Under the pieces are notes generated by a model. It was not told the origin of the DNA. It saw only the letters and a program-made list of their open reading frames with translations, and ran no database searches. Both the position numbers and the translations under genes were made by a program. From a virus (lineage: Duplodnaviria > Heunggongvirae > Uroviricota > Caudoviricetes), in IMG/VR virus record IMGVR_UViG_2531839178_000012, positions 1 through 10,610 of that record: a DNA stretch of 10,610 nucleotides. One strand, given 5' to 3'. The stretch's first letter is position 1; every line of letters starts with the position of its first letter. Positions 2,136-10,421 of the stretch are shown piece after piece.

Positions 2136-2684
2136 TTATTTTAAAGAAAGTAATTGTTCCACAGTCATATTTTTAATTGCGCCCCGGTTAACAAGAGTCC
2201 ATCCCTGTTTTTCCAGATAAAACCGGAAAGTCTCCAGGGTACAGACCAGTGCGCCATCAGGAACGGTTTCGGTGAATTCGACATTGCCGAATTTGTCGAA
2301 GTGAACAACCAGAGTGCGACCATCACCCGGAATCATCTTGTCAGCAGGTGGGGTGTTATTCTGGCGCAGTTCGGCCTCCATGCGGTCGAACTCAGCAATG
2401 TAGGCTTCCTTGAATGCGGCGGCTTTTTTGCCAGTGAAGCCCATCACCAGGAAAACGAAGCCGTTTTTGGTGATTTGGTACATTGGGAGTTTGCGCCCGG
2501 TTGAGTCGGTGTATTCGCTCGCCTCAAAATTGAGGGCAGTAAATTTATCTGAGCATTCAATATTTGCGATGGCACGTAACACATTGTCGTGTCGTTTGTG
2601 GAAGAACTCTGCAACCGCAACAGACGTAGTGACAGCGCGACCGTTTTCTACGGTTACACAAGGGTGAGAAAGGGTAGTAGCCAT
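2136..2684 (-). CDS. Rha-family phage regulatory protein (Phage_pRha-type N-terminal domain), 182 aa
   Basis: Segment VAEFFHKRHDNVLRAIANIE ... MYQITKNGFVFLVMGFTGKKAAAFKEAYIAEFDRMEAELR matches Rha-family motifs I recall (KRHDNVLR, GF.LLVMG.TGKKA). ATG at 2684 has GGAGG 8 nt upstream and puts the Rha domain at the N-terminus, as is typical. The track ORF extends in frame to 2978 (280 aa); see findings. Confidence 0.8.
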   Translation of the reverse strand: MATTLSHPCVTVENGRAVTTSVAVAEFFHKRHDNVLRAIANIECSDKFTALNFEASEYTDSTGRKLPMYQITKNGFVFLVMGFTGKKAAAFKEAYIAEFDRMEAELRQNNTPPADKMIPGDGRTLVVHFDKFGNVEFTETVPDGALVCTLETFRFYLEKQGWTLVNRGAIKNMTVEQLLSLK

Positions 2685-2850
2685 GATGGCAGCCTCCGCG
2701 ATGAATTTGATTAACTCACCACCGGAGGTAGCAATCTCATGGGTGGTGAGACGTACAGGGTTGCTACAACCGGTCATCACGGAACCCGGCCAGTCTTGCG
2801 ACTGCCCCGCACGCCCCACCATAATTTGAATGTGGCTGTGCATTACGCAT

Positions 2851-2873
2851 AAAAAAACCGCCTGAGCGCGGTT
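2851..2873 (-). terminator. Possible intrinsic terminator, minus-strand orientation
   Basis: Stem aaccgc/gcggtt with 6-nt loop (2856-2873); on the minus strand it is followed by T7 (complement of the A-run 2851-2857). Modest stem (4 GC pairs). It lies inside the optional N-terminal extension of the Rha ORF, so it conflicts with that longer gene model. Confidence 0.3.
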
Positions 2874-3379
2874 ATGCGCCGTGAATGACTTCGGGGTAGC
2901 AATCCCGGCACCCGTTTTATGAGGTGCAGGTGCACTATAATTCCACCCGTTCTGGTTTTCAATAGCTACATTCAACATTTTCTCTTTCCTTTCATCACCG
3001 AAGTGAACTTTGTTGATGCGGTGCCTGGTGCCTCCAGGTGACGTTAACCAGTTAATAATTAACGCCGGAATAAGGGATTTTCCTTACTGTTTTAACTGTT
3101 CCGCGTGCGCTGAGCCGCATTCACCGCATCACAAAATTCACTTTAAAAAGGGCGGACATCAGCCAGCAATTAAACCGATGCCGCCAACTGGTACTTCACA
3201 CAGCAATGTCGTTATTTACAACCGGAGGCGCACTCCCACCATTTAAATTTAACAGACAAGACCGACTCTTTATGGATACCGGAAATGCGCCTTCGTGTTG
3301 TGCCCGGTTTTATTTCACCACCTCCGGGCTTTGGTGGTATCTTTACTGAAGTTCTCGCACAACCAGTAAGGAAATGAAT

Positions 3380-3463: not shown

Positions 3464-4616
3464 AATAGCTGCGCTTAATACCGCTACACTTTTGCCAGTC
3501 CATGTTTGCCTCCGGGGAATGGGCTGACGGTTTCCATAAAATGGCGAACTTTTTTCAACAGTTGCCACATTGAGCGGCACTGATGATTACGCGTTATTGT
3601 GTCGTGAAGTGCCTGCCATAGCCGTTCAACATGATTCACCCATGGCGAGTAAACCGGCTGATAAATGCCCCTGAACTTCGGGTTCTCCTTCAGCCAGCTC
3701 TGTGTTTCCCGGCTTTTGTGGATAATGTAGTTGTCCACGATCAGCGTGATGGTTTTCGCCCGACGGTATGTCGCTTTAAGCCGCTTCAGCAGGCTGATGA
3801 ACAGCGCCGAACTTTTGCTGTTGCCGCCCACATAGCTGACTTTACCTGTCCCGCTGTGCAGCGCTCCGGCCAGATAATATTTTTCATTCTGTCCCGGCGT
3901 GACCACCCGTTTTTGCTGTCCGCGCAGTTGCCAGTCCGCACCGATTTTGGGATGAAGATGGATATCCACTTCATCTTCATAAAAGACCGGATGCTCTGCG
4001 CTGCATTCGTCCAGTGCTTTATGGATTGCTGCCATCTTTTCATCTTTATGCGGGTCACGGATACGCAGAGTTGGCGCAGCCCTTCGCCACACAATCCCCG
4101 CAGACGGCAACCAGCGGCGAACGGTTCCGGCATTTAACTGGCAACCGGTTATCTCATTGATTTTTATTGCCAGCAGTTCTGTACTCCAGCGTGAACGCTG
4201 GTAGCCAAAGTCGCCGGGAGAATGTTTTACCAGCTCACGTAACAGTGTGCAGATATGCTCAAACGGCCAGCGACGGGCACGCCCGGCAGGTAATGATTTC
4301 AGTCCCTCAACACCCGACTGCGTGAACCAGTTAATCCAGCGTCCAACAGAGGAACGGGCGCAGCAGAGCGTTCTGGCAACGTCGCTGACACGGTCGCCCC
4401 GGTGCAGCATCAGCATGGCAGTCAGTCTGCGGGCATAATTTTTATCGTGTGTTTTATGGATGGCTTTCTGCATCAGGCGTCGTTCGTCACGGGAAATTGG
4501 TGCTATGATCGGCATTGCTCAGTCCGGTTGGTGATTTGTTTTGATTTGGCGATTGTTCAGATCGCACAATCCGGGCTAAGTTCCCTCAAAGTGATCTACT
4601 ATTCCGCGCAGCTATT
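3464..4616 (-). mobile_element. IS630 (Tc1/mariner-related IS630 family), complete copy, 1153 bp
   Basis: Terminal inverted repeats AAATAGCTGCGC (3464-3475) and GCGCAGCTATTT (4605-4616). Flanked by TA (3462-3463) and TA (4617-4618) inside a C-TA...TA-G context, i.e. insertion into CTAG with TA duplication. Length 1153 bp agrees with IS630 as I recall it. Contains one 343-aa transposase ORF. Confidence 0.9.
3484..4515 (-). CDS. IS630 transposase, 343 aa
   Basis: Single long ORF filling the element. Sequence (MPIIAPISRDERRLMQKAIHKTHDKNYARRL ... DNYIIHKSRE ...) matches my recollection of the IS630 transposase, with an N-terminal HTH-like region and a C-terminal DDE-type region. Confidence 0.9.
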   Translation of the reverse strand: MPIIAPISRDERRLMQKAIHKTHDKNYARRLTAMLMLHRGDRVSDVARTLCCARSSVGRWINWFTQSGVEGLKSLPAGRARRWPFEHICTLLRELVKHSPGDFGYQRSRWSTELLAIKINEITGCQLNAGTVRRWLPSAGIVWRRAAPTLRIRDPHKDEKMAAIHKALDECSAEHPVFYEDEVDIHLHPKIGADWQLRGQQKRVVTPGQNEKYYLAGALHSGTGKVSYVGGNSKSSALFISLLKRLKATYRRAKTITLIVDNYIIHKSRETQSWLKENPKFRGIYQPVYSPWVNHVERLWQALHDTITRNHQCRSMWQLLKKVRHFMETVSPFPGGKHGLAKV

Positions 4617-5167: not shown

Positions 5168-5218
5168 GTTAAATCCTTCGTTGTTGGGGAATATTGTTAG
5201 TTTAGCCTGTAGTGGCTG

Positions 5219-5248
5219 TTGACGACAACGTTAATCCGGGGCTATATT
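5219..5248 (+). promoter_or_regulatory. Sigma70-type promoter, copy 1 of a duplicated late-promoter-like module
   Basis: -35 TTGACG (5219-5224), 18-bp spacer, -10 TATATT (5243-5248). Homologous to the promoter at 9400-9429 that directly follows the Q-like gene. Confidence 0.5.
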
Positions 5249-5293
5249 CCTCACGCGCCAGCAAAATCTGGCGTCGGGATTGGCGTCCCGGAT
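5234..5293 (+). repeat. 60-bp exact direct repeat, copy 1 (promoter -10 plus initial transcribed region)
   Basis: atccggggctatattcctcacgcgccagcaaaatctggcgtcgggattggcgtcccggat is identical at 5234-5293 and 9415-9474. Flanks are related upstream (CTGTTGAC[G/T]) and diverge downstream. Confidence 0.9.
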
Positions 5294-5331
5294 GTTTACG
5301 GAGCGATATGAGACGCGTCCGCGTCTTTTTT
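5255..5331 (+). ncRNA. Predicted short terminated transcript (about 77 nt), analogous to a lambdoid 6S/pR' leader RNA
   Basis: Predicted start about 7 nt after the -10; two hairpins (cgccag/ctggcg and cggga/tcccg), then an intrinsic terminator at 5311-5331. Existence of the transcript is inferred, not observed. Confidence 0.35.
5311..5331 (+). terminator. Intrinsic terminator (tR'-like)
   Basis: Stem agacgc (5311-5316) / gcgtct (5321-5326), loop gtcc, then T-run to 5331. Confidence 0.5.
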
Positions 5332-5494
5332 CATATCGTTTGCACAGTCACATTCGCGATTTATGGCGGGCTGTGTGGGGGAGCCGAAAGGCTCGCCGGT
5401 TTCCGTACCCGGTTACGCCAACCCTGCACAGTTCGCCACCAGTTCGATTGGCGTCGTCGGTGGCGATAATTTCCAAATGTACGGAGTTATCGTT

Positions 5495-6057: not shown

Positions 6058-6083
6058 CCCGATATGGGAATTCCCATATCGGG
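6058..6083. repeat. 26-bp perfect palindrome (cccgatatgggaa|ttcccatatcggg) centred on GAATTC
   Basis: Perfectly self-complementary, 15 nt after the ORF6N stop codon; no U-tract follows it. Confidence 0.85.
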
Positions 6084-6110
6084 AGAACATTACCACCGGG
6101 GATAAAATGA

Positions 6111-6139
6111 TTTGCGGTGAAAGGGAAGTTAAGTAGAAT
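6111..6139 (+). promoter_or_regulatory. Candidate promoter of the hok mRNA
   Basis: -10 TAGAAT (6134-6139) with a weak -35 (tttgcg, 6111-6116). The predicted start near 6146 gives a 5' end GGGUGCUUGAGGCU..., resembling the 5' end of plasmid R1 hok mRNA as I recall it. Confidence 0.3.
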
Positions 6140-6204
6140 TGCTGCGGGTGCTTGAGGCTATCTGTCTCAGGCATGAACACCAAAAGGCAGATGAGAAGCC
6201 CCAG

Positions 6205-6265
6205 TTAACATTACGCGTCCTGCAAGACGCTTAACATTAATCTGAGGCCAATTTCATGCTAGACA
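6205..6265 (-). ncRNA. sok: Sok-like antisense RNA (antitoxin of the hok locus), predicted
   Basis: Minus-strand promoter -35 TTGCCT (6299..6294), 17-bp spacer, -10 TAACCT (6276..6271), mirroring the R1 sok promoter layout. The transcript would overlap the mok start codon and ribosome-binding region; hairpin 6214-6231 followed by UAAUGUUAA. Confidence 0.4.
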
Positions 6266-6468
6266 CATGTAGGTTAGCCTCTTACGTGCCGGAAGGCAAG
6301 GAGAAGCAGGCTATGAAGCAGCAAAAGGCGATGTTAGTCGCCCTGATCGTCATCTGTTTAACCGTCATAGTGACGGCACTGGTAACGAGGAAAGACCTCT
6401 GTGAGGTACGAATCCGAACCGGCCAGACGGAGGTCGCTGTCTTCGTAGACTACGAATCCAGGAAGTAA
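6256..6468 (+). CDS. mok: Mok-like reading frame (in-frame N-terminal extension sharing the hok stop), 70 aa
   Basis: ATG at 6256, in frame with and ending at the hok stop, as in chromosomal mokC/hokC. The start region is the predicted Sok target. Confidence 0.55.
   Translation: MLDTCRLASYVPEGKEKQAMKQQKAMLVALIVICLTVIVTALVTRKDLCEVRIRTGQTEVAVFVDYESRK
6313..6468 (+). CDS. hok: Hok/Gef-family type I toxin, 51 aa
   Basis: MKQQKAMLVALIVICLTVIVTALVTRKDLCEVRIRTGQTEVAVFVDYESRK is near-identical over the first 44 residues to E. coli HokD/RelF and HokC/Gef as I recall them. Confidence 0.85.
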   Translation: MKQQKAMLVALIVICLTVIVTALVTRKDLCEVRIRTGQTEVAVFVDYESRK

Positions 6469-6545
6469 GAGTGACCGGGCGGGGAGCTGATCCCATCCCC
6501 GCCCACCTCTGATGTGTCAGGCATCCTCAACGCACCCGCACTTAA

Positions 6546-6588
6546 CCCGCCCATCGCTGTGATCTCTCAGCGTTTCGGCGGGTTTTTT
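6546..6588 (+). terminator. Intrinsic terminator of the hok transcript
   Basis: Outer stem cccgcc (6546-6551) / ggcggg (6577-6582) with inner stem cgctg/cagcg, followed by T6 (6583-6588). A 9-bp GC hairpin (6477-6504) lies just after the hok stop. Confidence 0.6.
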
Positions 6589-6608: not shown

Positions 6609-6636
6609 TTGATTTGCGCACCTTCGCAGATAGAAT
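6609..6636 (+). promoter_or_regulatory. Candidate sigma70 promoter of the nin-like operon
   Basis: -35 TTGATT (6609-6614), 16-bp spacer, -10 TAGAAT (6631-6636), about 80 nt upstream of the 6718 start codon. Confidence 0.35.
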
Positions 6637-6717
6637 CGACTCACTTAAGTAGCGCGCAGGGAGAAGAGGGATGGACCCCGAACAGGGGAGAGCTATTTAT
6701 CTGGAAGGATTCTGAAG

Positions 6718-7005
6718 ATGAAAATCGAAGAATTGCGTGAAATTTTTAGTGAAAATGGCCTCTATGCTGTGCGCGTTGAGAATGGAGCGATTGTCAGCCA
6801 TTGCCGCATTAGATGTTTGCAATCTCAACAAAGGAAGAGCGGTGCTGTGTTATTTTATTTTTGTAATGGACTTCTGACGGACGGTTTTATTTTGCGTGAG
6901 GACGAATTTGTCACATCATTACGGGTTTTGAAAGAGATTGGTTTTAAGGCTGGTTTTCTGCTTTTGCTGAAGAATAAACTCATCTACAATCTTGAGCAGG
7001 ATTGA
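6718..7005 (+). CDS. Hypothetical small phage protein, 95 aa (occupies the position of rem in Qin-like prophages)
   Basis: ATG at 6718 with GGAAGGA 8 nt upstream. The assignment is positional only (hok - this ORF - DUF1367 - ... - Q). Confidence 0.55.
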   Translation: MKIEELREIFSENGLYAVRVENGAIVSHCRIRCLQSQQRKSGAVLFYFCNGLLTDGFILREDEFVTSLRVLKEIGFKAGFLLLLKNKLIYNLEQD

Positions 7006-7043
7006 ACTCCTGCTGTGTAACACCGTGCCACCGGAGAAAGCCG

Positions 7044-7643
7044 ATGGCACATATACAACTGGTCAAACAAACCTTTTCCGGATTACTTCTCCCGGCGACG
7101 CCGGAGAGTTGCGATTTTCTGCATCAAATCAAAATAGGTGAGTGGATACACGCAGACTTTAAGCGTGTGCGTAACTACGCATTCCACAAGCGTTTTTTCA
7201 AACTCCTGCAACTGGGTTTCGATTACTGGACTCCGGTCGGTGGGGCGATCACGCCTCGCGAACGAAAACTGGTGTCCGGTTTCGTTGATTACCTGTGTGA
7301 ATCAGTAGGCCGGGAACATACGCCAGCTCTGAGCGAAGCCGCAGAGCAATATCTGAATACAGTTGCGACACGCAGAACCCGTGATACGGCATTGCTAAAG
7401 TCGTTTGAGGCTTTCCGCGAGTGGGTAACCATTCAGGCCGGATTTTACACCGAGCATATTTATCCTGATGGTAGTCGTGGGCGCAGGGCAAAATCTATCG
7501 CATTTGCGAACATGGACGAAACCGAGTTTCAGCAGGTTTATAAATCTGTACTGAATGTGCTGTGGAACTGGATCCTGTTCCGTAAATTCTCCTCTCCGGA
7601 GGAAGTCGAAAATGTGGCCGCGCAGCTACTGGAGTTTGCGTAA
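7044..7643 (+). CDS. DUF1367-family phage protein (YdfU-like), 199 aa
   Basis: ATG at 7044 with GGAG 7 nt upstream. Family assignment from recalled similarity and the conserved position upstream of DUF1364 and Q. Confidence 0.75.
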   Translation: MAHIQLVKQTFSGLLLPATPESCDFLHQIKIGEWIHADFKRVRNYAFHKRFFKLLQLGFDYWTPVGGAITPRERKLVSGFVDYLCESVGREHTPALSEAAEQYLNTVATRRTRDTALLKSFEAFREWVTIQAGFYTEHIYPDGSRGRRAKSIAFANMDETEFQQVYKSVLNVLWNWILFRKFSSPEEVENVAAQLLEFA

Positions 7644-7933
7644 TGGTGGATTTACGTAAAGCGGCGCGGGGGCAGATGTGCACCGTCAGAATTCCTGGCT
7701 ACTGCAATCACGATCCGGAAACGTCTGTGCTGGCGCATTACCGACTGGCGGGAACGTGCGGAACAGCGACAAAACCACACGATATGCAGGCGGCGATTGC
7801 CTGTAGCTCATGCCACGATTTAATCGACGGGCGGGTAAAAACAAGCGATTACACCAAAGAAGAATTACGCCTGATGCATGCAGAAGGTGTTTTTCGCACG
7901 CAAGAAATCTGGAGAAAGGAAGGTTATTTATGA
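7643..7933 (+). CDS. DUF1364-family protein (YbcO-like), 96 aa
   Basis: TAATG start overlap with the previous gene. Motifs DLRKAARG.MC.VRIPG.CN..PETSVLAH.RL ... IACSSCHD match YbcO of prophage DLP12 as I recall it. Confidence 0.8.
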   Translation: MVDLRKAARGQMCTVRIPGYCNHDPETSVLAHYRLAGTCGTATKPHDMQAAIACSSCHDLIDGRVKTSDYTKEELRLMHAEGVFRTQEIWRKEGYL

Positions 7934-8254
7934 TTTACCCAACAAATACAGGCAAAAGCGGGGAACACCTTCGTCTCACCACGCTGGAAAGTGTCTGGAT
8001 TCAGGGAAAACTGCGCATGTGGGGGCGCTGGTCGTATATTGGCGGCGGTAAGACGGGGAATATGTTCAACCAGTTGTTGGCCTCTAAAAAGCTGACAAAA
8101 ACGGCAATTAACGAGGCGCTCCGGAGGATGAAAAAAGCAGGTCTGGACAAACCTGAACTTGAGGCTTTTTTGCGGGATATGATCAACGGCAAGCAAAAAA
8201 GCTGGCTGGTGCATTGTACTGATGCAGAGGCGTTATGCATTGATCGGGTGATTA
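7930..8254 (+). pseudogene. Q-like late antiterminator, 5' part, interrupted by an IS5-family element
   Basis: ATGA start overlap with the DUF1364 gene. The frame runs to the IS junction at 8254/8255 and, after removing the IS and one TA, continues in frame at 9174 to the stop at 9401-9403 (about 184 aa). A WG.W motif near the N-terminus and the position after a ybcO-like gene and before a promoter module suggest a Q-type antiterminator; family assignment is tentative. Confidence 0.55.
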
Positions 8255-8265
8255 GGCTGTGTCCC

Positions 8266-8571
8266 TTAATTACGTAAGCGTTGATAAAAGAGTCGGATGC
8301 AGCCCAGTTTCACCATCGCCAGGTAATTTCTCGCCGTTTTGTCGTAACGCGTGGCGATGCGGCGATATTCTTTCAGCCGCCCAAAGCACCGTTCAACGAC
8401 ATTACGATTGCAGTACGCATCACGATCAAGCTGTGCACGTCCATCCGATGCCATTTTCTCATTTGACTTTCGGGGGATTACTGCCTTTATACCGTTATTT
8501 TTCAGCTCGTTGCGCAATGCGCGCCCTGAATACGCTTTATCAGCCAGTACCGCATGTCCACGGCGTTTCAT
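8266..8571 (-). CDS. IS5-family transposase, C-terminal ORF (OrfB)
   Basis: C-terminal motif VVERCFGRLKEYRRIATRYDKTARNYLAMVKLGCIRL resembles the IS5-family signature. The frame is open upstream to about 8646 and overlaps the OrfA frame region, suggesting frameshift expression or a degenerate copy. Confidence 0.6.
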   Translation of the reverse strand: MKRRGHAVLADKAYSGRALRNELKNNGIKAVIPRKSNEKMASDGRAQLDRDAYCNRNVVERCFGRLKEYRRIATRYDKTARNYLAMVKLGCIRLFYQRLRN

Positions 8572-8661
8572 GCTGCCGTTCTGACGCTGAACGCCAATCC
8601 CGTCCAGAAGTCGTTGCGCGAACTGGCTTTCATGAGCTTGTCCGGGGGCTTAGCACGATAT

Positions 8662-9111
8662 TTATCGGGAGGCCACTTCCGTCTGTTGCCAGATGGATTT
8701 TGGTGCCAAAACCGCCGCGAGAGCGACCCAGCCCATTATCTCCGTCGATATCGGGATGTTTTTTTGAGCACCGGCGGCACATTTCAGCGCCCGGATATTA
8801 CTGCCATCCAGCGCGGTGGCAGACCAGTCAATAAAGCCGTTTGCATCAAGTAGCGAAAGCAACCTGTTGAAAATAATATTAATCACGCCTGACTTAGACC
8901 ATCGGTTAAAGCGGTTATAAACAGTTTTCCATGACCCATATCGTTCGGGTAAATCGCGCCATGGTGCACCGGAACATAACACCCAGAACATGCCATTGAT
9001 GATTTTACGGTGCTCAGCCCATGGGCGTCCGGCCCGTGGTGTGGCGGGTTCAGGAGGTAACAGGGGCTTGATGATGGTCCATGCCTCATCGGGAAGGTCG
9101 TAGCGAGCCAT
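8662..9111 (-). CDS. IS5-family transposase, N-terminal ORF (OrfA), 149 aa
   Basis: MARYDLPDEAWTIIKPLLPPE ... APWRDLPERYGSWKTVYNRFNRW is a typical IS5-family N-terminal motif set. Confidence 0.7.
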   Translation of the reverse strand: MARYDLPDEAWTIIKPLLPPEPATPRAGRPWAEHRKIINGMFWVLCSGAPWRDLPERYGSWKTVYNRFNRWSKSGVINIIFNRLLSLLDANGFIDWSATALDGSNIRALKCAAGAQKNIPISTEIMGWVALAAVLAPKSIWQQTEVASR

Positions 9112-9173: not shown

Positions 9174-9403
9174 GTGAAGTGCTGGCAGAACACCCAGGAT
9201 TGATTTGTATCCTCCGGCAACGATATGAAGGGAGGGGGATGACTAAGCGAAAAATGGCTGAATTGCTGAATGATTCACACCCTGAGTGGTGTTACGCCAC
9301 GTGCCGTAATCGCATAGATGCGTGGTTGAAAATGGCAGAGTTTATGCTCTATCTGCCGATGCGTGATGCATTCTCTTCCGGGGATTTAAAAACTGTCTGT
9401 TGA
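9174..9403 (+). pseudogene. Q-like antiterminator, 3' part, separated from the 5' part by the IS5-family insertion
   Basis: In frame with 7930..8254 across the reconstructed insertion site. The track's ORF 9179..9403 begins at a GTG read as M, so it is not an independent gene. Confidence 0.5.
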
Positions 9404-9429
9404 CTCAATCTGTTATCCGGGGCTATATT
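9400..9429 (+). promoter_or_regulatory. Late-promoter-like sigma70 promoter (pR'-like), copy 2, immediately after the Q-like gene
   Basis: -35 TTGACT (9400-9405, overlapping the Q stop codon), 18-bp spacer, -10 TATATT (9424-9429). Lambda pR' also has a TTGACT -35 as I recall it. The transcribed region is identical to copy 1 for 60 bp. Confidence 0.5.
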
Positions 9430-9474
9430 CCTCACGCGCCAGCAAAATCTGGCGTCGGGATTGGCGTCCCGGAT
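9415..9474 (+). repeat. 60-bp exact direct repeat, copy 2
   Basis: Identical to 5234-5293. Identity ends a few bp before the IS911-like element begins. Confidence 0.9.
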
Positions 9475-9481
9475 ATCGAAA

Positions 9482-10421
9482 TGAGGTGTACTGGCAATAG
9501 CGGACACTACCATTTGTCTTTTTTTAAGCAGCCATCTGATGATATTTTTCCCTGAAGGCTGCCGGGGAGATATTCCCCAGACGAGAGTGACGACGCTGAC
9601 GATTGTAGAAAATCTCAATGTATTCCCGTATTACTGAGATGGCTTCATCCCGGTTATTAAAACGATAGTGGCTCAGGCTCTCATTTTTCAGCGTTCCCCA
9701 GAAGCTTTCCATCGGAGCGTTGTCGTAACAGTTACCTTAACGGCGACATTGGATGTTTTCAGACCAAACTGCTCCTGTATGACCCGGTAATCGTATGCGC
9801 AGTACTGTGAACCTCGATCAGAGTGGTGGATTAGCCCGGCAGGTGGGCGCTGGCTCCTGAGCGCCATAAACAGGGCTTTACCTGTCAGCTCTTTTGTCAT
9901 GCGCTCTCCCATGGCGTAGCCGACAATTTTGCACGTATAAACATCTTTGATGCCAGCGAGGTACAACCATCCCTCCTGTGTGGCAACATACGTCAGGTCC
10001 GCCACCCAGACCTGATTTGGTGCTGTAGGAGCGAACGTCTGGTTCAACAGATTTGGCGCAACTGGCAGATTGTGGTTCGGGTTCGTAGTCGCTCTGAACT
10101 TGCGTTTCTGCTTACAGCGTAGCCTTAGCTCCTTACGAAGACGTGCCAGTCGGTCACGACCAACGATGATGCCATTCTCTGCCAGCTCCGTCTGGAGCCG
10201 CCGGGTTCCATATGTTTCGCGAGTGCGGATATGTGCCACCTTAATCTCCAGTTTTAGCCGCTCATCACTTTGTTTTCTGTCTGAGGGTTCATGCTGTACC
10301 CAGTTGTAATAACCGCTCCTGGATACACCAAATACCTGACACATCGCTTCAATGGGAAATTGTTGTCGCCATTGTTCGATTAACGCGTATTTTTCAGCGA
10401 CTCCTGTGCAAAATACGCTGT
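9482..10421 (-). mobile_element. IS3-family (IS911-like) element remnant, truncated at its orfA side by IS30
   Basis: Contains an IS911-type orfB on the minus strand and only the last codons of orfA. The terminus near 9482 starts TGAGGTG (IS3-family ends begin TG). The inner boundary is set by the IS30 end at 10422. The left boundary is approximate. Confidence 0.7.
9524..10344 (-). pseudogene. insO: IS911-type transposase OrfB (InsO-like), inactivated by indels
   Basis: ORF 10344..9688 (MCQVFGVSRSGYYNWVQHEPSDRKQ ... HSDRGSQYCAYDYRVIQEQFGLKTS) and ORF 9712..9524 (MESFWGTLKNESLSHYRFNNRDEAISVIREYIEIFYNRQRRHSRLGNISPAAFREKYHQMAA) are two halves of one IS3-family OrfB. Several small indels near 9700-9730 break the expected SRKGNCYDNAP segment. 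Confidence 0.8.

Follow-up and report, generated by a model that had tools for sequence, protein, structure and literature searches.

Is the hok-like region at positions 6104-6588 of the window (the whole stretch of 10,610 nucleotides analysed here) a complete type I toxin-antitoxin cassette and, if so, is it still armed? The first-pass annotation had described a complete hok/mok/sok architecture. This description is borne out, as every sequence feature that it listed was found again and as Rfam, Pfam and the fold statistics agree. We concluded with high confidence that this is a complete type I toxin-antitoxin cassette, hok/mok/sok, which belongs to the hokD/hokW clade of prophages (Table 1).

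Table 1. Features of the cassette (positions in the window)
Feature	Position	Strand	Basis or remark
hok promoter: -35 TTGCGG (6112-6117), 16-nt spacer, -10 TAGAAT (6134-6139)	6112-6139	+	homology
Full-length hok (mok-hok) mRNA, 443 nt	6146-6588	+	Rfam leader match, fold
tac element GGGUGCUUGAGG	6146-6157	+	pairs with 6525-6537 in the full-length minimum free energy (MFE) fold
Rare leader allele GGCAGAUGAGAAGCCCC, including ucb/anti-SD (6198-6202)	6186-6202	+	comparison with relatives
Sok antisense RNA (predicted), about 69 nt	6196-6264	-	ends taken over from sokW as annotated in 933W (L003 2593-2663)
mok Shine-Dalgarno (SD) GAGG	6244-6247	+	8 nt upstream of ATG 6256; predicted to pair with ucb 6198-6202 when the full-length RNA is folded
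mok reading frame, 70 codons	6256-6468	+	in frame with hok; 933W mokW annotation has a like layout
Loop CUAGACA of the SDmok/dcb hairpin	6259-6265	+	presumed Sok recognition loop; CUAG fits YUNR
sok promoter: -35 TTGCCT (6299-6294), 17-nt spacer, -10 TAACCT (6276-6271)	6271-6299	-	homology
hok Shine-Dalgarno AAGGAG	6298-6303	+	read from sequence; overlaps the sok -35 on the opposite strand
hok toxin ORF, 51 aa: MKQQKAMLVALIVICLTVIVTALVTRKDLCEVRIRTGQTEVAVFVDYESRK	6313-6468	+	Pfam HOK_GEF
Tyr47 codon UAC + G, TadA editing motif UACG	6451-6454	+	read from sequence
GC hairpin, 9 bp, 10-nt loop	6477-6504	+	in both full-length and truncated predicted folds
fbi element CCUCAA(C)GCACCC	6525-6537	+	pairs with tac, C6531 bulged
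Intrinsic terminator: stem AACCCGCC/GGCGGGUU around a nested hairpin, then U-run	6544-6588	+	predicted fold

Parts of the cassette

The sequence GGGTGCTTGAGGCT, with which the leader had been said to begin, occurs once in the window, at 6146. The Rfam model RF01794 matches 6146-6318 over all of its positions (1-157 of 157, which comprise the tac stem, the second stem-loop and the SDmok/dcb hairpin) with 96.3 bits and E=3e-21, the gathering threshold being 59. This is less than the 113.5 bits of 933W, and the alignment of the window has a 3-nt gap in the leader and, where one of the stems begins, three pairs of non-standard type. The toxin frame, from the ATG at 6313 to the stop TAA at 6466-6468, matches the Pfam profile HOK_GEF (PF01848) over its whole length (1-42 of 42; 81.8 bits for a cut-off of 22, E=2.6e-23), while the NCBIfam Hok subfamily model gives sub-threshold matches only (55.5 for a cut-off of 73), a low score which reflects the fact that this model is built around plasmid Hok. 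That the ORF or the motifs are there by chance, with no genuine element, has practically no probability left: its sole support is the weak consensus match of both promoters, and it is already refuted by the homology statistics, so that we rejected it on the two E-values, on the fold of the full-length mRNA (MFE of -186.1 kcal/mol, z=-6.8) and on conservation.

A simple consensus scan of the window locus for promoters and terminators called neither the sok promoter, because its -10 matches the consensus at only 3/6 positions, nor the terminator, because the loop of this compound structure is longer than 8 nt; the -35 of hok was missed by the consensus scanner for the same kind of weak match (3/6). 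The sok promoter and the terminator are therefore called here from homology and folding, not from the consensus scan. The antisense promoter announced on the minus strand, TTGCCT-17-TAACCT, is indeed present and is placed as in R1, in the same alignment columns as the TTGCGC-17-TATCCT of an R1-type plasmid locus. Its two hexamers recur unchanged in sokW of 933W and Sp5, loci in which tac and fbi are identical too, and the TAACCT of sokW was mutated (primers YO-421 and YO-597) so as to abolish antitoxin activity (PMC8621323). On the other strand AAGTAGAAT, followed by 6 nt and by GGGTGC, is conserved across hokD/W-type loci, and hok transcription would start at G6146.

The predicted Sok consists of a single-stranded 5' end and of a long stem-loop (6197-6249), folds with -30.4 kcal/mol (z=-5.5) and has a sequence complementary to both the SD and the AUG of mok. 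Direct repeats TTAACATTA had been proposed to flank a hairpin at its 3' end. Both copies are present, the first at 6205-6213 and not at 6204-6212, but they do more than flank it: when read on the Sok strand (UAAUGUUAA), one copy pairs with the other, by A-U and G.U pairs, within one long Sok stem-loop. The role of the YUNR motif, which the loop facing Sok would carry (Table 1), is reportedly due to work on R1 by Franch et al. in 1999. Behind its hairpin, Sok of the window has a shorter U-tract than Sok of 933W (GGGGCUUCUCAU against GGGGCUUUUCUCU). We considered that this short U-run could make a defective Sok terminator and set the idea aside, the tail of the R1-type locus, CUAUCUUCUUUCU, being no better.

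The mok start claimed at 6256 is there, 57 nt upstream of the hok ATG and in the same frame, with no stop before hok, so that by its sequence the mok frame encodes a putative N-terminally extended Hok. We rejected the view that an in-frame mok is aberrant, since mokW of 933W is annotated in frame, with the same offset, and since an R1-type plasmid variant has it likewise (57 nt). Most of the related loci have an offset of 57 nt, and some have one of 56 or 58 nt; an in-frame mok is thus the majority state, but the frame is not conserved. The hok SD is invariant in the alignment of related loci. As to the editing motif at Tyr47, A-to-I editing that turns the corresponding Tyr into Cys is reported for hokC, hokD and hokE (PMC12214031).

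Fold of the mRNA and proposed mechanism

The pairing of the 5' and 3' ends, for which folding of the hok mRNA had been suggested, is present in both the MFE and the centroid structures of the full-length RNA. It covaries across genera: the 12 pairs of tac/fbi are formed in 98% of the cells of the alignment (19 haplotypes), a percentage inflated by the fact that the fbi segments were located by duplex search, against 30-60% in slid controls, and 3/12 pairs have compensatory changes. In the same predicted fold, the mok SD is paired with ucb. Enforcing the alternative tac/ucb pairing yields the SDmok/dcb hairpin, which matches the third Rfam helix. The strong GC hairpin reported after the hok stop is formed by GGGCGGGGA (6477-6485) and UCCCCGCCC (6496-6504). 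By analogy it is presumed to be the protective 3' end of the processed mRNA, the equivalent stem-loop of R1 being required for the stability of the truncated mRNA (PMC9841398). The terminator, likewise found where it had been announced, has its stem at 6544-6551 / 6577-6584 followed by a T-run to 6588, and its loop has a 24-nt insert relative to the Rac prophage of E. coli 442/2.

The homology to validated loci (R1 hok/sok and Sp5 hokW-sokW) suggests the following scheme for these parts. The weak promoter would give the 443-nt mRNA, in which the 5' tac would pair with the 3' fbi while ucb holds the mok SD, so that the full-length RNA would be neither translated nor bound by Sok. Slow trimming of the 3' end up to the GC hairpin would remove fbi, whereupon the 5' end would refold onto ucb and expose the mok SD in a hairpin. 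Sok would pair with this exposed hairpin and the duplex would be destroyed; once Sok had decayed, ribosomes would translate mok and thereby hok, the final product being Hok, a 51-aa inner-membrane toxin. Hok toxicity and its suppression by Sok have been demonstrated for homologues only, R1 (PMC9841398) and hokW-sokW (PMC8621323), and it is from such loci that we infer the transcripts, the processing, the toxicity and the current activity of the window locus.

Is the cassette then a fully active killer or stabiliser, as the first-pass annotation had suggested it may be, in which Sok decays faster than the hok mRNA, so that loss of the prophage or shut-off of the cells' transcription kills them? 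All the canonical elements are intact, the close homologue hokW-sokW acts as a toxin-antitoxin pair, and for R1 hok one copy on the chromosome is enough to kill when Sok is absent (PMC9841398). We nevertheless find this somewhat unlikely. No stabilising role has been shown for hokW, and a recent preprint cites reports that chromosomal hokA, hokB and hokC of E. coli do not mediate post-segregational killing (PSK) or rifampicin activation (bioRxiv 10.1101/2025.08.07.668861). The immunity and replication genes of the closest E. coli relative are missing and Q is split, which leaves little of a mobile element to stabilise, and the deletion in the leader described below is predicted to disfavour activation.

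Relatives of the cassette

The closest known relative is hokW-sokW of Shiga-toxin phages: mokW/hokW/sokW of 933W, a record in which all three genes are annotated (AF125520), has about 90% nucleotide identity to the window over 444 nt. The toxin had been called nearly identical to K-12 HokD. This holds for the first 44 residues (43/44, the exception being I9V; 45/51 overall), but HokD is not the nearest known relative: HokW is identical at 49/51 residues, differs by I9V and E50R, and shares the C-terminus VFVDYES (VFVDYES.K type), whereas the last residues are TAYEPEE in K-12 and VDYESRK in the window. The nucleotide identity across leader, ORF and fbi, together with the HokW-type C-terminus, places the window in the hokW-sokW subtype, and the label for this copy should be hokW-type mok/hok/sok locus, not K-12-like HokD. 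The exact Hok protein is found on 10 contigs. Compared with 933W, the window has, besides the shorter Sok U-tract, a 3-nt deletion in the leader, a longer GC hairpin and a different, longer terminator after fbi. In the Sakai prophage Sp5, hokW-sokW has been established experimentally as a toxin-antitoxin system of type I (Takada et al. 2021, PMC8621323).

With the paradigm, hok/mok/sok (parB) of R1, a plasmid locus with proven PSK, the window shares the order tac, ucb, SDmok, mok, sok promoter inside mok, hok, 3' stem-loop, fbi and terminator, and the Rfam leader model fits both. The differences are that R1 Hok is only about 46% identical to the window Hok, that a 16-nt GC hairpin is inserted in the second stem-loop of the window leader, and that mok of R1 lies at 58 nt, one base off the hok frame (inferred from the G176T stop, PMC9841398). 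The mok/hok locus of the Rac prophage of E. coli 442/2 (MN652886), whose record annotates both genes, is about 85% identical and has the gene order hok, rem, DUF1367 (irsA), ybcO, q in common with the window. Its -35 is TTGACC, its Hok has a HokD-like C-terminus, and because of an extra T its mok, at 58 nt, is not in the hok frame.

The first-pass annotation had opposed this copy to the K-12 Qin hokD (relF) locus, thought to lack mok and sok. K-12 does lack them: homology begins about 15 nt before the hok ATG and the 3' end of relE replaces the leader, with tac, ucb, mok start and sok promoter all absent upstream of about -15, and an Rfam search of K-12 hokD gave no match. A homologous GC hairpin, fbi box and terminator are shared downstream, where a rem gene follows. 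The junction with relE is seen in K-12 and in three further loci (L016, L041, L054); the window, with its full leader, is not of this truncated relBE-hokD type. The implied unusualness of the window copy, however, fails. The complete architecture is the usual state in prophages, and K-12 is the exception, since complete HokD-type loci are present in at least 120 viral contigs. The hok-type element is conserved in thousands of genomes, and the identical 445-nt locus is found in CP119446.1 and in one other assembly. Lambdoid-prophage hok/sok cassettes have already been annotated (933W, Rac 442/2) and shown to be functional (Sp5 hokW-sokW, 2021), and thousands of them have lately been catalogued (bioRxiv 10.1101/2025.08.07.668861). 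The locus is thus not new, its value as a discovery is small, and it is ordinary apart from a rare loss of three bases in the leader.

Prophage setting

The placement in a nin-like operon was correct: upstream of four genes of the same orientation, namely rem-like, DUF1367, YbcO and DUF1133 (Q-like), lies the locus. Around it is a lambdoid prophage of Rac/Qin-like type, degraded by IS, and the cassette occupies the nin/Q-proximal part. This prophage contains many IS, one of them splitting the Q-like gene, and the immunity and replication genes of the closest E. coli relative are absent from it. By similarity the source belongs with the E. coli/Shigella group. In intact relatives the series rem-like, DUF1367, YbcO, DUF1133 is followed by holin, lysozyme and Rz. 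The exact context of the window, with Ant upstream and DUF1367 and YbcO downstream, is found in a minority of the viral contigs (4/108 and 7/84). The cassette behaves as a movable module and not as a fixed gene of the nin region.

Such a position would suit a cassette helping lysis upon induction, as proposed for hokW-sokW of Sp5: once the prophage is induced, Sok would be gone and Hok would damage the inner membrane and speed phage release. Deleting the Sp5 locus halved phage release (PMC8621323), the cassette lies just upstream of rem, Q-like and lysis genes in intact relatives, and a rem-like gene comes after it in 26/84 viral contigs. Moreover hok is co-oriented with the early-right/Q operon, and read-through from upstream could occlude the convergent sok promoter. 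For the window locus we consider this role unlikely. With its Q-like gene split and its immunity and replication region missing, the phage cannot finish a lytic cycle, and help with lysis can be at most an ancestral role. In 933W the cassette has another place, close to the end of the prophage and next to a very large ORF (L0134), so that its position is not essential.

A rare allele of the leader

What distinguishes the window from its relatives is the leader. It carries GGCAGAUGAGAAGCCCC, without one A and two further A's of the near-invariant GGCAGAUAGAGAAAAGCCCC (in context, GGCAGATGAGAAGCCCC where the near-invariant form in relatives is GGCAGATAGAGAAAAGCCCC). This allele is unique among 50 genome loci; of the viral contigs 2 have it, whereas the canonical sequence is found in at least 120. 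When the MFE of the truncated RNA is taken alone, the textbook open form is absent in the window; we therefore assessed this form by enforcing tac/ucb and by comparing loci. It is structurally possible for the window allele, at a predicted cost of +7.5 to +8.2 kcal/mol (overall 5-10 above the closed form), against 0-2 for most relatives. The difference between the open form and the MFE, +7.5 kcal/mol, ranks first among the 39 genome loci compared and likewise among 81 distinct viral or prophage loci (median about 0), about 120 loci together. Repaired in silico, the leader gives +0.6 with one A restored and 0.0 with full repair, and an ensemble calculation, made for eight different 3' ends, again finds a gap of about 6-7 kcal/mol. 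By this prediction the deletion makes the translatable open mRNA costlier by about 6-7 kcal/mol. In the predicted fold it lets UGAGA (6192-6196) pair with UUUCA (6252-6256), so that the SD/ucb helix reaches across the AUG of mok; the inner tac stem, moreover, loses pairs by the deletion.

The window allele may therefore be an attenuated one: the deletion, GAUAGAGAAAAG to GAUGAGAAG, would hold the 3'-processed mRNA closed, and little or no Hok would be made, even in the absence of Sok. We propose this reading tentatively. Besides the folding results and the rarity of the allele, it agrees with the decay of the host prophage and with loss-of-function mutations of the same class obtained in the laboratory in R1, which stabilise the anti-SD pairing (PMC9841398). 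Against it, the prediction is a thermodynamic one, which ignores co-transcriptional folding, ribosomes and RNases, and some loci with the canonical leader also score +5 to +6.4. The allele has stayed identical in 2 viral contigs and at least three assemblies, where hok and mok are intact as are the two promoters; this is equally compatible with function.

If the locus is attenuated, the rare allele, which lacks one A and AA of GAUAGAGAAAAGCCCC, could be a naturally selected "safety catch", by which the processed hok mRNA would be locked closed and the toxin silenced in a decaying prophage, all recognisable parts being left intact; we regard this as possible, at less than even confidence. Should it be true, "complete" hok loci could not be scored as active from lists of their parts alone, and natural variation would mirror the class of laboratory suppressors which stabilise the anti-SD pairing. 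A change of 1-3 nt in the leader, with its predicted shift of about 6-7 kcal/mol, would thus offer a cheap and specific test of whether chromosomal hok loci of complete architecture are armed.

Parts of the locus and folding of the hok message

All the features listed by the first-pass annotation for the hok/mok/sok locus at 6104-6588 were found in the sequence. Hok (51 aa) matches Pfam HOK_GEF across the full profile (E=2.6e-23), and Rfam RF01794, which is labelled "sok" although its model is the hok leader strand, matches 6146-6318 end to end with 96.3 bits (threshold 59).

Features of the locus and of its surroundings in the window
Feature	Position	Strand	Remark
Anti-repressor Rha/Ash	2136-2978	-	beside immunity module
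IS630-family transposase, intact	3484-4515	-	343 aa; DDE_3 and HTH domains
Anti-repressor ORF6N	5363/5495-6043	+	beside immunity module
Leader GGGTGCTTGAGGCT	6146	+	single occurrence in window
mok SD, GAGG	6244-6247	+	upstream of ATG 6256
mok ATG	6256	+	57 nt 5' of hok ATG 6313, same frame
sok promoter	TTGCCT 6299-6294, TAACCT 6276-6271	-	17-nt spacing
Common stop of mok and hok frames, TAA	6466-6468	+	
GC hairpin	6477-6504	+	9 bp
Compound terminator	6544-6584, continuing into T6583-6588	+	predicted fold
rem-like ORF	6718-7005	+	downstream of hok, co-oriented
DUF1367	7002-7643	+	downstream of hok, co-oriented
YbcO	7643-7933	+	downstream of hok, co-oriented
DUF1133 Q-like gene, two pieces	7930-8277 and 9239-9403	+	downstream of hok, co-oriented
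IS3-family element (HTH_21/rve)	9524-10344	-	after split Q-like gene

The window allele and its closest E. coli relative, FDAARGOS_944, have a GC hairpin loop (6486-6495) 5 nt longer than that of 933W, K-12 and Rac 442/2 and, compared with Rac 442/2, a 24-nt insert (6552-6576) forming a nested hairpin within the terminator loop. The Tyr47 codon reads as part of UACG (6451-6454), a TadA motif; Tyr-to-Cys editing has been reported at the equivalent position of hokC, hokD and hokE (PMC12214031).

The 443-nt RNA 6146-6588 has a predicted fold with z=-6.8. The pairing of its two ends, which the first-pass annotation had proposed to look for by folding, is present in both the MFE and the centroid structures: the 5' end, tac (6146-6157), is paired with the 3' box, fbi (6525-6537), with C6531 bulged, while the mok SD is paired with AGCCCC (ucb, 6198-6202). 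This predicted form corresponds to the closed, full-length one known from plasmid R1 (PMC9841398). In a comparison of 19 distinct haplotypes (Escherichia, Kluyvera, Citrobacter, Pantoea and Photorhabdus), the tac/fbi cells are 98% paired, a figure inflated by the finding of the fbi segments through a duplex search; sliding the partner columns lowers it to 30-60%. Both sides are changed in three of the 12 pairs (U-A to C-G, and G-C to A-U twice), and the position of fbi is conserved, 45-56 nt after the stop codon. The putative tac/fbi helix is supported by this cross-genus comparison. When the RNA is cut at the GC hairpin and tac/ucb pairing is enforced, the SDmok/dcb hairpin of the open form is predicted, with the loop CUAGACA; it is the counterpart of a hairpin of the Rfam consensus structure.

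The direct repeats TTAACATTA do exist in two copies, the first being at 6205-6213 and not at 6204-6212, but they do not flank the Sok hairpin as had been proposed. On the Sok strand, where the copies read UAAUGUUAA, one base-pairs with the other (A-U and G.U pairs); hence they are the arms of one stem-loop, the predicted Sok being a single long one (-30.4 kcal/mol, z=-5.5). The U-run 3' of it is GGGGCUUCUCAU in the window and the longer GGGGCUUUUCUCU in 933W, from which we draw no conclusion, because the Sok tail of the R1-type locus is no better than that of the window.

Relationship to hokW, R1 and K-12 loci

The interpretation as a hok/mok/sok locus holds, with HokW and not K-12 HokD as the closest relative. 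Over 444 nt the 933W locus shares about 90% identity with that of the window. Its GenBank record has annotations for mokW, hokW and the antisense RNA SokW, with mokW in frame with hokW as in the window; the two toxins differ by two residues (I9V and E50R). The hokW of Sp5 is toxic; sokW under its own promoter neutralises this toxicity, and a -10 mutation abolishes the protection (Takada et al., PMC8621323). Primers YO-421 and YO-597 of that study locate the mutated -10 at the TAACCT of the window, and in the alignment the corresponding columns of the R1-type plasmid locus read TTGCGC-17-TATCCT. This shows that the promoter was correctly placed, and rightly described as positioned like that of R1. 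With an identical -35 and one different spacer base, the putative sok promoter of the window is the experimentally validated sokW promoter. The element belongs to the long-known, experimentally characterised hokW/hokD clade and is, as such, already known.

The contrast drawn with K-12 hokD, which was thought to lack mok and sok, is borne out: it aligns to the window only from a point about 15 nt 5' of the ATG, the 3' end of relE lying further upstream, and an Rfam search of K-12 hokD gave no match. This agrees with the statement that K-12 hok loci have lost components (PMC12214031). The same junction (relE 3' end about 15 nt before hok, without the leader) was also seen in three related loci: L016, L041 (Kluyvera sp., divergent Hok) and L054 (hok frameshifted).

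Gene context and decay of the prophage

The window is the entire contig AKNA01000039.1. "Nin-like operon" is a fair label, given the co-oriented downstream genes and Rac 442/2 (MN652886), which has the same gene order with mok and hok annotated; in intact relatives these genes are followed by another anti-repressor gene, then by holin, lysozyme and Rz. This arrangement is not fixed: rem lies downstream of the cassette in only 26 of 84 viral contigs, DUF1367 with YbcO in only seven, and in 933W, unlike in the window, the cassette is near the prophage end.

The IS630-family transposase lies between the two anti-repressor modules, where FDAARGOS_944 has cI/cro-like, ydaT, replication and QueH genes, and transposase remnants (DDE_Tnp_1; 8266-9111, minus strand) totalling about 1 kb interrupt the Q-like gene. 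With this split and the IS3-family element after it, the prophage cannot express its late genes normally; it is defective.

P1/P7-type antisense immunity modules (Rfam isrK, C4, c4-a1b1 targets) occur three times, at 2739-2927 (-), 5242-5443 (+) and 9394-9524 (+). Two are complete, in opposite orientation, each preceding an anti-repressor gene; the third is an 81-nt direct repeat of 5213-5293, 90% identical, cut short by the IS3-family element. A perfect 26-nt palindrome, CCCGATATGGGAATTCCCATATCGGG (6058-6083), is found upstream of the hok promoter, after the stop codon of the anti-repressor gene; it has no U-tract after it and is conserved in three relatives sharing the upstream gene. Downstream of hok lies the sole sigma-70-like site called by the promoter scan, TTGATT-16-TAGAAT (6609-6636), followed by a leader beginning CTTAAGTAGCGCGCAGGGA.AAGAGGGATGG, which aligns with the K-12 hokD-rem intergenic sequence. 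The stretch 6609-6717 could serve rem as a conserved regulatory leader.

Prevalence of the complete architecture

At least 120 IMG/VR contigs carry the canonical leader sequence. In most of these viral loci the full leader, mok and the fbi box accompany a gene for a protein with exactly the K-12 HokD sequence. The query matched in 4719 of 5426 complete E. coli genomes, and a 2026 preprint catalogued 44,248 Hok homologues, with prophage enrichment (bioRxiv 10.1101/2025.08.07.668861). Judging from these sequences, the complete hok/mok/sok architecture is the norm in prophages.

In most loci the mok and hok ATGs are 57 nt apart (in frame); the spacing is 58 or 56 nt in L001, L014, L017, L018, L020, L021, L023, L029, L030 and several viral contigs; several of these changes trace to a single T or another 1-nt indel near AAAGG(T)CAAGG. 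The C-terminus of Mok therefore lacks sequence conservation, which fits the idea that what counts is the translation of mok and not its protein product. Near-identical E. coli-type hok loci filed under the unrelated Acinetobacter idrijaensis (L024, 275-nt contig) and Xanthomonas pisi (L026, 431-nt contig) and under Actinobacillus phage vB_Apl-pPE4 (PP818812.1, 90-93% identical to the E. coli-type prophage DNA of the window in five aligned pieces that cover about 2.9 kb of the phage record) likely reflect contamination or mislabelling.

A rare leader allele

In the 50 aligned genome loci, GAUAGAGAAAAGCCCC or a close variant stands just upstream of and including ucb; the window alone carries GAUGAGAAGCCCC there. 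Since an identical 445-nt locus recurs in CP119446.1 and one other assembly, and the allele also in two viral contigs, sequencing error is ruled out as its source.

For the 3'-processed RNA, we calculated how much free energy separates the open (tac/ucb) form from the unconstrained fold. Opening is predicted to cost +7.5 to +8.2 kcal/mol in the window, the highest value among 39 genome loci and among 81 distinct viral/prophage loci (median of the latter about 0), against +1.3 to +2.1 for 933W hokW. Re-inserting a single A in silico lowers it to +0.6, full repair of the leader to 0.0, and with ensemble free energies the gap is again about 6-7 kcal/mol, whichever of eight 3' ends is chosen. The deletion is predicted to act in two ways: UGAGA (6192-6196) would pair with UUUCA (6252-6256), the SD/ucb helix then covering the mok AUG, and the inner tac stem would be shortened. 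The predicted effect is like that of a class of R1 loss-of-function mutations, "stabilisation of aSD pairing" (PMC9841398). It is thus possible, if somewhat doubtful, that this is an attenuated allele, in which the rare leader deletion would lock the processed hok message closed; we stay tentative because the support is a thermodynamic prediction and because a few canonical-leader loci likewise reach +5 to +6.4 kcal/mol. The leader deletion is the only non-routine result here, and the sole lead deserving experiment.
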